DNA of 64,000 bases from a virus (lineage: Duplodnaviria > Caudoviricetes), in IMG/VR virus record IMGVR_UViG_3300021387_001066, positions 12,373 through 76,372 of that record. One strand, 5' to 3'. Position 1 is the first letter of the stretch. Each line of letters begins with the position of its first letter. Positions 5,318 to 32,670 of this stretch are shown here, piece by piece. The notes beneath the pieces were generated by a model. The model was not told where the DNA came from. It saw nothing but the letters and a program-made list of their open reading frames with translations, and made no database searches. The translations under genes and the position numbers were made by a program.

Positions 5318-6000
5318 TGACTATCGAAGAATACTTTGGAGATTGGTGTAGGGTGATAGACATAAAGGAAGCAGAATATAAGGCTAGGCTTCTGGCTTCT
5401 TCCCCAGTGTCTGTCTGCCCTATGCCAAGAGATATGTATAGAGCCTTTGAACTATGCTCTCTTGAGAAATTAAGAGTGGTAATACTTGGGCAGGATCCAT
5501 ATCCAGACTATATAGATGGAAAACCTAGGGCAACTGGTATTGCTTTTGCTAATTCTCCAGATATTCCAGAAGCTAAAATCTCCCCTTCATTAGAGATTCT
5601 AAGGGAATCTGTTATTGACTTTACCATTCCTCATGGAATAGTTAACTTTGACCAGAGTTTGGAAGAGTGGGAAAGGCAGGGGGTGTTGTTACTAAATACA
5701 GCACTTTCTTGTGAGAAAGGAATCATTGGTTCACATATATCTTTGTGGAAGTATTTCATAAAATCCTTTCTTACTAATCTATCCAGACAAACTACAGGAA
5801 TAGTGTATATCTTGATGGGCAGCCAAGCCCAATCATTTGAACCCTTCATAGATAAAAGTTCAAATCATATTATCAGGATAAGACACCCTTCCTACTATGC
5901 AAGAACCCATACCAGAATGCCCTCTGACATCTGGAATGAGGTGAATGACATCCTGCTAAAGCAGAATGGCTGTAAGATAGAATGGTACAAAGAATATTAA
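5317..6000 (+). CDS. ung: family 1 uracil-DNA glycosylase
   Basis: Catalytic VVILGQDPYP, plus QGVLLLNTAL and RHPSY motifs. Confidence 0.92.
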   Translation: MTIEEYFGDWCRVIDIKEAEYKARLLASSPVSVCPMPRDMYRAFELCSLEKLRVVILGQDPYPDYIDGKPRATGIAFANSPDIPEAKISPSLEILRESVIDFTIPHGIVNFDQSLEEWERQGVLLLNTALSCEKGIIGSHISLWKYFIKSFLTNLSRQTTGIVYILMGSQAQSFEPFIDKSSNHIIRIRHPSYYARTHTRMPSDIWNEVNDILLKQNGCKIEWYKEY

Positions 6001-13415: not shown

Positions 13416-13772
13416 ATGAGTAAGAGTATTGAATTAAGTCCAAAGCATGGGGTAAATCCAAGTGTTACCCACTGTGAATGCTGTGGTAAGGAAATAGGCA
13501 TTGCTATGTTTGGTAAGCTAAAGGATGATAAGGAAGCTCCAAGAGATGTGTATATGGGGCTTTGCGATGACTGCCAGAAGGTAGTCGATTCTGGAGGATT
13601 ACTGATTATAGAGGTGAGGGATGGTGAGAGTGGTACTAATCCATATAGGACTGGTAGGATAGTAGGTATTAAGAAGGAAGCCAAAGAAAGACTTTTCAAA
13701 GACTTAAAATCTTCCATGTGCTATATGGAAAACTCAATGTTTTCAAGACTTTTTGAGAACATAGCCTCTTGA
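13416..13772 (+). CDS. putative Zn-binding hypothetical protein
   Basis: CECCG...LCDDC cysteine pairs. Confidence 0.7.
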   Translation: MSKSIELSPKHGVNPSVTHCECCGKEIGIAMFGKLKDDKEAPRDVYMGLCDDCQKVVDSGGLLIIEVRDGESGTNPYRTGRIVGIKKEAKERLFKDLKSSMCYMENSMFSRLFENIAS

Positions 13773-13841
13773 AATCTAAGTAAATCATTTATTTTATTTA
13801 AAGTGTTTTTTAGTAGTGTTTTATAGGTATTATCTCTGAAG

Positions 13842-13849
13842 TATCTTTG
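13842..13849 (+). promoter_or_regulatory. Bacteroidota primary-sigma -7 promoter element (TATCTTTG)
   Basis: Exact TAnnTTTG match about 10 nt upstream of the first long helix of the non-coding region. Confidence 0.7.
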
Positions 13850-13855
13850 TAGTGT

Positions 13856-14395
13856 GAAACAAGTAGTCGCAGGCTTGATTCAGAGGACATAGTGAAATAG
13901 ACTGGCATAAGCCAACCCTATATTTGAGTTCCACATTAAGTACTGCATCTACTTAAGGGAACTCACGAGAGATTCCCTGTTAAGTACCTGCGACTACTTG
14001 ATAGGGAAAACTCTTTTATAGGGTTGGCCTTTTTTCACCGAGAACAATGGGCCCAGTGCCACAGCACTGATCACCTTAACTAGGCTTGAAACATAGCATA
14101 TAGAAGGTTAGACGTAGGGTTAGTAAGTACAGGTAGTGATACCAACATAGTACTGAGGTTAAAAGCTCATGCTCCTACAGGCCTGAAAATGTTCCAGGAT
14201 ATATGACTGTAGTGTCAGCTTTCTGTGGTTTGAGGGGTAAAGCTGGCCAGTGAGGTTTACAGGGTGAGAGTCCCAACAAAAAATGTCTTCTATGAATAGA
14301 GGAAATTGACCGCCTGCAGTTTAAGTCCTAAGGAGGAATGAAGAGTCAGATGTTTTTGCTCAGTTCTGCTGGGCAGGGAAAAACTATGTTCATTT
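13856..14395 (+). ncRNA. candidate large structured non-coding RNA (possibly two RNAs split at the T-run 14030-14035)
   Basis: No ORF of 60 aa or more in 13773-14431; upstream host-type promoter; about ten helices found by eye, including 14-bp and 12-bp perfect long-range pairs, a GNRA tetraloop (GTGA) and a T-loop-like GGGTGAGAGTCCC. Confidence 0.65.
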
Positions 14396-14431
14396 AACAA
14401 TTAAACTTTAAACAATTTAATATTTAATACT

Positions 14432-14878
14432 ATGAGCAGTTACTTAAATTTCTATTTAGTCCCTAAGAAGAAAGAAGGTCAATCTGAAGAGTCAGAACCT
14501 ATACATTTGATGAGCTACAGCAGAAATTCTGATGTGTACCAAAATTACTATGATTATCTAAATCCTGCCTATTATTCAGGTGCAGATGACAAAGTAAACT
14601 ACACAGAGCTTACTCCTCATGATGCCCAGTATGTGGTTGATAAGGCTAGGGAAGACCTCTTGAAGTCAGAGAAAAGCTTTGATGATATGGTTACTGCCTA
14701 TAAGAGCCTAGACAATCTTCCGAAGGACACTCTTGAAGACTATATATTAGACTATACTTCAAGAAAGCAATATATTGATGAGCTTAAGGATGGCATTAGA
14801 GAGCTTGAGTTTATTGCTGGTTTGGTTAAAGATTTGGAATTCTCTGGTTTTGAAAAGGTATTGATTAACATTGACTGA
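14432..14878 (+). CDS. hypothetical protein
   Basis: 148-aa ORF after a long AT-rich leader. Confidence 0.8.
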   Translation: MSSYLNFYLVPKKKEGQSEESEPIHLMSYSRNSDVYQNYYDYLNPAYYSGADDKVNYTELTPHDAQYVVDKAREDLLKSEKSFDDMVTAYKSLDNLPKDTLEDYILDYTSRKQYIDELKDGIRELEFIAGLVKDLEFSGFEKVLINID

Positions 14879-26870: not shown

Positions 26871-29800
26871 ATGAGTAAGTCGTGTACAATACTTGCACAT
26901 GTTAGAAGGCCTAATGGAGAAGTAGTGGAAAGCAGGTTATTCAATGACCTGCTCCACTATACTTCTGACAATAGGGAGTTAACTAAAGAGTACTATGGAG
27001 TTGGAACCAGTGAGGACTTTCTTTCCCAAGTAAGGGATTCTGATGAATTCCAGGTAGATGAGAATGGAGAAATCACACTCAAGTCCCTAAGAACTTTGGC
27101 TAAGTTGGATTTGGATACTGACAAGCTTTTGCAGGTACTTAACAAAGATATCAGGGAAGGAGAATATGATTATGAGGAAGCTGTCCGTAAGATAGAGGAT
27201 TTCAATAATAACAATGAATTCTCTGACAAGGTGATAGCAACTATCTTTCCTACTGCTTCTAATAAGTACTATGTGACAGTGGTTCCTATAAAGAAATCAG
27301 TAATTAACTCAGAGGGGAAGAAGGAGGATGAGAGAGTAGAGGTTAATGAGAAAAAGAAACTCCACGATGTAGTTCATAATAAAGAGGTTGAAAAGAGAAT
27401 AATCAATCTTTTAAGACAGCATCAAGTGTCTGTTAAGTTCCTAGAAGGTAACAAGGAAGGGGGCAGGTATTCTACAGAGAATGCCACTAGGACACAGGAT
27501 GGGCTCTATGCTCTCATAGAACTAAGTAAAGGCGGATATACAACAGATGTGCTTGCTGAAGAAGCAGGTCACTTTGCTGTAGGTGCGCTTGGTGATAATC
27601 CTTTGGTTAAAAGACTTCAGGATCTTCTTGGAGATCCATCTGTCCAAAGAGAAGCATTAGGTGATGAAGAATTTGAGAATTCTCAGCTTGGTACTAATCC
27701 TGCAAGGGAAGTAGCTGGTAAGCTAGTAGGAAAGGCCCTGCAGAGAAAACTTGATAATGCAGGGATGGTGAAAACATTGGCAAACAGAATAGCAAATTTT
27801 GTCAAGAGAGTCTTCTATGCTTTCTCTGGTAATGAGGTAAGATGGGCTGCTGCTAAGGCTGAACAGGCTGCTAATAGAATTGCCTATCAATTTGTTGAAG
27901 GTGACAACAGCTTCTCTGTTGACAATGCTATCAGTATCAGTGAAGTCATGAATAATGCCACGTTAAGTGTTAATCAAAAAGTCTATAAGGATACTGTAGA
28001 TGAATTAGGTAGAATGGTCAAGCAGCTTGAGGCAATAGCACAAGACCAGTTTACTGGTCAAATGCAGGCATCTCTGGCTATGTCAGTACTGTCTGGTACT
28101 GATGAGAACACTGGTGTATCAGCCTTACAAATGAATAAGACAGACCTTACTGCAAATTCCTTGGCCTTTGATGGTATAGTTCAGGCATTGGTTCAGGTTA
28201 CAGATTACCTTGGTCCTGATAAGGAAATAGACCAACTTATGAAGGCTGTAGATTTGGATAATGTATCTGATTTCTACGCTAACATGGCAAGGAATGGAAG
28301 ATACCTTAGGCAAGCTAGAACATTCCTTAGAAGTGCTGAGATTATTATCAGTACAATAGAAGCTGCTTTGAACTCAAATAATCTTGCAGGTTCATTGGTA
28401 CTTGCAAATGGCTCTACCATTACTGATGTAAGATATCAGGATGAGAATGGTACTTGGAAGAGCATTAATTTGAAGAATACTATTCCTGCTTATAAAAATA
28501 TCATTGCTAAAGCTGTAAGTGAACTGTCAAGTCTTGAAAGTAACTACTTTGCAAGATTCTGTGAAGATATTTATGGTAGTAAGTATATTACCTCCACAGT
28601 AGGTAAGACATGGCAAGATATCTGGCACGGACAAAAAGCTTTTGGAGAGAGCACTCAAAGTATTGCTGACATGGTGCTTGGTGTAGGTATGGAAGATATT
28701 GATGTATTCCACAGATACTTAGGCTCTATGGCTAATAATCCTGATATCATAGGACAAATAGCAGATAAACTTGTAAAGACTGCTAATAAGACCGCAGACG
28801 ATCTTGCTATCAAATATAAAGACAGACTTCTTATACTACAAGAAAGAGCTAGAAAGCTTGGTTTAAATACAGCTGACTTGCTAGAAAAAGATGAAAACGG
28901 TGTACCTACAGGTAACATGATTACTCCTCCTGCAGCTCCTACTAGCGAGGGAAATAGGGAAGAGGATGCTATTTGTCAGGCCTATATGTCTGAACTTGAG
29001 ACAGACAATCCTAATGATGTTCCTGCTGTTCAATATGGTAGATGGGAAAAGGAAAGAGATGAATTCCTTAAGCAGCTTTGGGAAGACTTTAAGGAAGAAA
29101 ATCCTGATTGGCAGTCTATGTCTGGATTTACCAGAGGTTATAAGTGGGATGCTTATAAACGTCCAAAATATAAAGATTGGAATAAGGAGCATAGTATTAA
29201 GGTAGAAGTCAAGAATCCTGATACAAACGAAATACTGTATGTAAAATGGATTCCTAATCTTACCTATCAGACTGATGCGTGGGACAATCTAAGGTCAAAG
29301 TATCCTTCAAAGAATGGTGATTCCATTGACAAGTGGATGTATGACTACAGGCAGATTAAGGAGGAACTTGACAGGATGCTTCCTGTAGGTGCCACTAATT
29401 CCTATAGGCTTCCTCAGTTCAGGGGAACCTTCATGAATTCTGTAAGGCAAAGTGCTATATTGGAGAAAGGCCCATTGAAGAAAACCAATGCATGGAGGAA
29501 GACATTTGGCCGTAGAGTTATCCTTGAAATGTTTGGTGTTGAATCTGAGGAGACAGATTATGGTGATATGACAACTATGAACTCTCCAGAAGAGGAACTA
29601 CTTGGAACAAAGCTGAATTATGAGGAGGAAAGAGCTGCAAGGATTCCTGTATTTGGTGTCAACAAGCTTAAGAACTTGCTTGACCTTGACTCTGATATCA
29701 TTGGTTCTACTATAGCTTATGCTTCTATGGCCACTTCCTATTTAAGTTTAGACAGTGTTGTAGATGGTCTTGAGGTTGGCGCTGAAGCTTTATTCAACAG

Positions 29801-32632: not shown

Positions 32633-32670
32633 AAAAGTATAGCTAGGAATAGTTACCCAGCTATACTTTT
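32633..32670 (-). terminator. terminator of the 2729-aa gene (potentially bidirectional)
   Basis: AAAAGTATAGCT / AGCTATACTTTT perfect inverted repeat with A/T tracts on both sides. Confidence 0.8.

Follow-up and report, generated by a model that had tools for sequence, protein, structure and literature searches.

What the largest ORF-free gap in the genome of a crAss-like rumen phage contains is the question raised by this locus. The window, that is, the whole 64-kb stretch of DNA that was analysed, corresponds to 12373-76372 in an IMG/VR virus record of 76 kb and 73% completeness; its crAss-like traits are giant ORFs (2811, 2729, 1672 and 1638 aa) together with genes for RNase H and a family-A DNA polymerase. 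SRR873601 contains an identical 8.7-kb contig (SRR873601_419419). Gene orientation switches from the + to the - strand at ~31.8 kb. The gap, 13773-14431 (659 nt), falls within the replication-gene module, between the genes for DNA polymerase A and RNase H, and is followed by a gene that starts at 14432 and encodes a 148-aa product; RNase H and others belong to this downstream operon. Searches of the gap under code 11, code 4 and with TAG read as Q returned no ORF, and a gene concealed by an alternative genetic code is therefore rejected. Decayed genes are likewise rejected as the origin of the gap, given that the ORFs found in relatives at the equivalent position have left no tblastn trace in the window. 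The answer favoured here, and considered rather likely, is that the 5' part of the gap is a self-contained, moron-like small-RNA gene of the phage, equipped with its own host-type promoter and intrinsic terminator and acting in trans.

Promoter, terminator and hairpins of the predicted RNA

The -7 consensus of Bacteroidota promoters is TAnnTTTG. Intergenic DNA, which makes up 5.1% of this genome, contains 11 of the 61 sense-strand matches to it, a 3.5-fold enrichment, and a box of this type, TATCTTTG, lies on the + strand at 13842-13849, just where an earlier note on this DNA had placed it. The same octamer precedes the tRNA-Arg gene of the phage: the second-largest gap of the genome, outside the window (G000:C1:5385-5842), holds a tRNA-Arg(CCT) at 5514-5587 that has a TATCTTTG -7 box before it and short G+C-rich hairpins on its flanks. 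From the box at 13842-13849, host RNA polymerase would start a few bases downstream (~13855) and stop (~14036) at a run of six Ts, 14030-14035, on the same strand, which the earlier note had also located correctly. The whole predicted RNA, ~180 nt on the + strand (13855-14036), thus takes its 5' end from the promoter and its 3' end from the T-run, and it includes no ORF of more than 12 codons. A further match to TAnnTTTG, TATATTTG at 13919-13926, sits where arm B ends, within the RNA; the homologue L071 described below does not preserve it exactly, and it is probably incidental.

This RNA would consist of a small 5' hairpin, a single-stranded linker of ~33 nt and a long 3' structure. The 5' hairpin, P1 (13860-13877), had gone unmentioned in the earlier note: segment A (13860-13873) and the CTTG that follows it are themselves a hairpin in the MFE fold, with a 5-bp stem (13860-64/13873-77) and an 8-nt loop (13865-72). 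The linker (13878-13910) is the least conserved part in alignments with L071, and in the same alignments it holds a conserved GGACAUA at 13885-13891. The 3' structure would be closed by the 12-bp basal stem P2, whose arms, B (13911-13922) and B' (14017-14028), are perfect complements as had been claimed, and would bear two hairpins, C and D. With its G+C-rich base and the T6 tail behind it, P2 is a predicted intrinsic terminator, the structure of which is unusually large (118 nt); a T-rich tail also lies 3' of the stem in L071. Hairpin C (13925-13965) appears in the MFE fold at the position given previously, as does D (13973-14008), the description of which has to be amended. The lower stem reported for D, 13973-78/14003-08 flanked by AGAG/CTCT, stands; the open 20-nt loop above it does not, a 7-bp upper stem (13980-86/13995-14001) closing an apical loop of only 8 nt (13987-13994) and bringing the stem to 14 bp (13973-86/13995-14008).

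The three hairpins are variations on one module. C aligns with D over its full extent, a direct repeat (D6) with a period of 44 nt is present, and C is clearly a local, tandem duplicate of D. P1 repeats the top of D in inverted orientation, agreeing with the reverse complement of D at 20 of 21 aligned positions, plus a 2-nt gap. The module is thus used three times in the RNA, in one case, that of P1, inverted. Owing to this inversion, the 7-8-nt loops of P1 and D are exact complements, and bases 13866-13873 of P1 (the 5' half of a putative kissing helix, K) match the D loop at 13987-13994 (its 3' half) in a perfect 8-bp complement. Segment A is indeed the perfect reverse complement of A' (13987-14000), and the order A-B-A'-B' does cross, both as noted earlier; A' is the D loop plus the 3' arm of the upper D stem, however, and what the A/A' complementarity chiefly represents is the perfect match of two hairpin loops.

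These repeats are far beyond chance. Folding of the 191-nt stretch yields -68.8 kcal/mol, whereas its 200 shuffles give -43.0 +/- 4.1 (z = -6.3) and none of them is as stable. Perfect inverted repeats of at least 12 nt with arms within 220 nt number only three in the 76-kb record, and A:A' (14 nt) and B:B' (12 nt) are two of them; the 12-mer AAGTAGNNGCAG occurs three times without mismatch in the 64 kb, always within the element. The remaining inverted repeat, 32633-32670, adjoins a TATGTTTG box upstream of a 248-aa gene on the - strand, at the flip of gene orientation. No copy of the element is present elsewhere in the same phage genome. Inside the 1638-aa ORF, a site at 27120-27144 resembles a fourth, degenerate copy of the module, in that 14 nt are exactly complementary to the 5' arm and loop of D, with CAAG 5 nt upstream; taken alone, it is not significant. 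A search of the phage genome for targets of the RNA gave as its best complementarity these 14 nt (27131-27144), and 13.6% of shuffles reach at least 14 nt.

The rest of the gap, from 14037 to 14431 (395 nt), is a second non-coding domain, ORF-free and by eye G+C-richer, with a fold no better than that of shuffles (z = -0.6 and +0.1 on the two strands) and with neither an Rfam match nor a TAnnTTTG promoter. Two short rumen contigs, L064 (positions 1-359) and L065, encode a 99% identical 148-aa protein behind a wholly different ORF-free sequence in place of 14073-14390, and their homology with the window resumes only ~55 nt before the 148-aa start codon. Lacking a fold signal and being replaced by unrelated sequence in a near-identical variant, 14037-14431 is rejected as part of the RNA; the non-coding stretch upstream of the 148-aa gene is, on the evidence of these contigs, a swappable cassette within one phage population.

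Pairing in a homologue and distribution of the element

Six matches came from scanning JGI metagenomes with a degenerate pattern for hairpins C and D, and one of them is a true homologue: L071 (REGX01397908.1), a 1558-nt metagenome contig. Its similarity to the window forms a single block from the -7 box to the T-run, at 76-80% column identity, between unrelated flanks. The box reads TATTTTTG in L071 and TATCTTTG in the window, at equal distance to the RNA. Here the RNA lies 3' of an unrelated gene and is followed by at least 240 nt of unrelated ORF-free sequence, and no relatives of the L071 genes were found in the window or in crAss-like loci. Since similarity is limited to the promoter-terminator block, the conserved unit is exactly promoter to terminator, the hallmark of a transcription unit that is autonomous and moves horizontally. 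Within the block, hairpin C is missing from L071 by a clean 40-nt indel, leaving one tandem hairpin unit there versus two in the window. L071 folds at -46.1 kcal/mol on the + strand (z = -5.1) and at -34.1 on the - strand (z = -3.2).

MAFFT and model-based alignments both misplace a 1-nt bulge in B' of L071, and pairs were for this reason tabulated by explicit coordinates. All 5 pairs of P1 persist, with U.G replaced by U-A at one of them, and so do the 12 of B:B', two through compensatory changes (C-G to A-U, and C-G to U-A). Of the 14 pairs in D, 13 remain, with wobble-type changes (U-A to U.G and G.U to G-C). The loop-loop helix retains 7/7, one by a compensatory change from C-G to G-C, while the eighth loop-loop pair of the window has disappeared from L071 by a matched loss of its two sides. 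The compensatory change in the loop-loop helix, found in the one homologue, indicates that the long-range complementarity of A and A' is under selection. Altogether, 10 paired bases are substituted between the window and L071; three of the affected pairs changed in a compensatory way, three changes are compatible with wobble pairing, and one terminal pair is broken. When 10 substitutions are randomised among the paired bases, typically 7-8 pairs break, and one broken pair or fewer was obtained in 0 of 50,000 trials (p < 2e-5). Substitutions are also distributed unevenly, affecting 10 of 76 paired versus 17 of 55 unpaired bases (Fisher p = 0.016).

Strand is indicated by the same comparison. 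G.U pairs, three in the window and two in L071, become A.C mismatches on the opposite strand, and a model built in this analysis, R1, scores 231 bits on the + strand versus 35 bits on the -. This one pairwise comparison of two members shows selection on the + strand for base pairing within P1, within D, in B:B' and between the loops. The -7 box, the fold and the conservation in L071 similarly lend support to the earlier prediction of a promoter-driven, structured + strand RNA of ~180 nt. For the loop-loop helix alone the support is modest, consisting of one compensatory pair and a matched indel, for which a hand estimate gives p ~0.05. P1 and D being inverted duplicates at the DNA level, covariation between their loops could also arise by gene conversion, and the concerted change of P1 and D could reflect either this or co-evolution with a DNA-binding protein.

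The absence of a recognised family, as reported in the earlier note, holds for Rfam 15, which at gathering thresholds gave 0 matches in the whole window (pRNA, RNAI, riboswitches, GOLLD and ROOL included). At E <= 10, the sole match on 13700-14500 was to a plant miRNA-precursor model, at 27.5 bits versus a threshold of 100 and on both strands, and is generic long-hairpin noise. Model R1 was run against 50 related phages in their full records, of which 15 reach 90% completeness or more, and found the element in none. Syntenic loci of relatives, 56 viral ones located via the upstream 118-aa gene and 3 via the downstream 148-aa gene, together with L082-L085, gave no blastn or model match, and several Logan contigs reached through the flanking genes likewise lack the element; in these the equivalent position is tightly packed with ORFs, and there are relatives that carry the 148-aa gene without the element. 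There was no blastn match among GenBank phages, and five exact-pattern scans of viral contigs yielded nothing, or one chance match within a coding region. A CRISPR-repeat mimic (an RNA anti-CRISPR) would share its hairpin unit with a repeat array of a host genome; exact matches to the pattern of C and D in 185,579 species genomes were confined to two single, chance-like sites, with no array. The element is also absent from relatives of the gene neighbouring it in L071 (L072-L079). The family is undescribed, and two members are known.

A probable loop-loop contact and the alternatives of attenuation or DNA binding

The complementarity of A and A' could be realised either as a kiss between the loops of P1 and D or as a long duplex, A:A' pairing being mutually exclusive with the P1 and upper-D stems. 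Contact energies were obtained as nearest-neighbour estimates, in which the ensemble cost of freeing both segments is added to the duplex energy and steric penalty is excluded. By these estimates, a loop-loop helix of 7-8 bp in the window costs 0.2-3.2 kcal/mol to open and nets -10.3 to -10.6 kcal/mol, and the 7-bp helix of L071 costs 2.0 and nets -9.1 kcal/mol. The 14-bp duplex of the window has an opening cost of 17.1 and a net energy of -7.4 kcal/mol, and the extended duplex of L071 one of 15.4 with a net of -1.3 kcal/mol. Extension of A:A' through CTT/AAG to 17 bp, as suggested in the earlier note, requires a 2-nt bulge and only worsens the net energy in the window (opening 21.3, net -4.3 kcal/mol). 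The kiss is thus favoured over the duplex in both the window and L071 and, because it nets a better energy than the 14-bp duplex, is on these estimates the better-supported form of contact. A truly knotted RNA, as had been entertained, would be unnecessary, the cheapest and conserved contact being a kiss of 7-8 bp between two pre-formed hairpins.

In the small-RNA reading, the P1 and D loops most likely form such a kissing helix, which would anchor the 5' end of the RNA at the tip of the terminator structure, so that the fold is compact and closed. The RNA would then act in trans, as a base-pairing regulator or as a protein or RNA decoy, rather than on neighbouring genes. Production of the RNA, an intramolecular kiss and action in trans are what we infer.

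The mutual exclusion of A:A' with P1 and upper D is also the basis of a different proposal, in which the element is a cis-acting leader or attenuator of the downstream operon and the choice between A:A' and P1 plus D sets read-through at B:B'. No TAnnTTTG promoter occurs between the terminator and the gene at 14432, and the downstream genes may consequently need read-through. Yet A:A' overlaps neither B:B' nor the T-run, so that the terminator is present in both conformers; never overlapping the terminator stem, A:A' cannot be an antiterminator. The preference for the kiss over the duplex in both genomes also speaks against such a switch, and linkage to a downstream gene, which attenuation would presuppose, is absent: in L071 the RNA precedes unrelated non-coding sequence among unrelated genes, and the phage variant with the 99% identical downstream protein differs in sequence upstream of that gene. 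Attenuation, and with it the riboswitch- or attenuator-like switching offered in the earlier note, is for these reasons considered unlikely.

Judged unlikely to the same degree is a function at the level of DNA. Here the module would be a set of three imperfect palindromes of ~21 bp (13859-78, 13936-56 and 13980-14001, with half-sites TTAAGTA / TACTTRA) that bind a dimeric protein, either as operators over the transcription start or as initiator sites of a replication origin. In favour are the confinement of all three AAGTAGNNGCAG copies to the element, the position of one palindrome on the predicted transcription start, and the location between DNA polymerase A and RNase H genes. Further, the stem sequences are conserved beyond what pairing requires, and the element of the window folds well on both strands. 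Binding of a protein to DNA leaves unaccounted for, however, the compensatory changes in B:B', the lower D stem, and the G.U pairs valid only on the + strand. Nor does it account for a similarity that ends exactly at the promoter and the T-run, or for P1 and D spacers that stay complementary yet differ between genomes. The cumulative GC skew, moreover, turns at ~31.8 kb, with the flip of gene orientation and away from the element.

Relation to known RNAs and implications

A close precedent for the geometry of P1 and D is provided by RNA I and RNA II of ColE1, in which hairpins that are inverted copies of each other present fully complementary 7-nt loops, kiss, and then extend into a duplex. 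The loops described here similarly give 7-8 perfect pairs between inverted hairpin copies. The ColE1 hairpins, however, reside in two transcripts from opposite strands of one locus, whereas those of the phage reside in one transcript by inverted duplication, and the phage RNA has no match to the Rfam RNAI family.

A second precedent leads to another proposal for the phage RNA. The pRNA of phi29-family phages is a phage RNA with two mutually complementary loops that covary between phages (PMC4201828). Like pRNA (RF00044; promoter-driven, ~120-170 nt), the RNA considered here is phage-encoded, has a predicted promoter and contains two complementary, covarying loops, and its P1 and D loops might accordingly pair between molecules, head to tail, to yield dimers or closed rings. 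Sequence does not distinguish intra- from intermolecular pairing. Such self-assembly is nevertheless decidedly improbable. The 33-nt linker would be long enough for an intramolecular kiss, which is kinetically favoured. In pRNA a 4-nt intermolecular loop pairing operates on the portal of protein-primed Bacillus phages, whereas the present helix has 7-8 nt and belongs to a crAss-like phage. The gene lies in the replication module, neither at a genome end nor beside packaging genes, and no pRNA model matches it. A pRNA-type ring on the portal would be expected to be essential for packaging across the phage group; this element is absent from the 50 related crAss-like records and is therefore not an essential structural part of the virion. 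If self-association were true, it would extend the phi29-pRNA principle to a second natural case, one found in an unrelated group of phages and borne by an accessory, horizontally moving gene. As a variant of this idea, P1 may mimic the real target of the RNA and mask the D loop until a trigger arrives.

That the element merely serves the upstream DNA-polymerase operon as a large terminator, its repeats being a functionless by-product of local duplication, would suit the stem and T-run after a long + strand operon and the evident origin of C from D, and is very improbable given a conserved promoter box and P1 inside the conserved block, loop complementarity preserved via compensatory change, and an RNA that in L071 comes after an unrelated gene. 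A retron msr-msd or a DGR template is rejected, there being no RVT_1 match in the 76-kb, 73%-complete record, and so is a type III antitoxin RNA (ToxI-like), the tandem hairpin units numbering two in the window and one in L071 and no toxin being present. Neighbouring proteins gave no PADLOC match and no Pfam match above the curated cut-off, and no defence-type or toxin genes were found among the neighbours.

The small-RNA gene favoured here also has a likeness among bacterial genes. Small RNAs of Bacteroidota, such as GibS of Bacteroides thetaiotaomicron, are transcribed from TAnnTTTG promoters, measure 100-200 nt and end at intrinsic terminators. The layout of such a stand-alone gene recurs here in the sequence: an upstream -7 box, a non-coding RNA devoid of ORFs, and a 3' stem followed by a U-run. 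Unlike those RNAs, this one is phage-borne, and it has no similarity to any Rfam family; internal complementary loops are, to our knowledge, not a described feature of Bacteroidota small RNAs. Among crAss-like phages, phi14:2 produces abundant transcripts from long intergenic regions, to which no function is assigned and which exceed most genes in transcription, and its middle and late genes have promoters for the host RNAP (bioRxiv 10.1101/2020.03.07.982082). A long ORF-free gap in a crAss-like genome is common to both cases; the phi14:2 transcripts arise from the early region of a marine Cellulophaga phage and have no reported structure.

CrAss-like phages are among the most abundant viruses of the gut and rumen, and almost nothing is known of their non-coding RNAs. 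The unusual feature of the predicted RNA is the presence of two fully complementary loops within one transcript, and the cassette that encodes it, from promoter to terminator, appears to move between unrelated phages. With clean boundaries and with support for its pairing on the + strand, the element offers a tractable candidate for a phage accessory RNA, whether regulator, decoy or self-assembling RNA.
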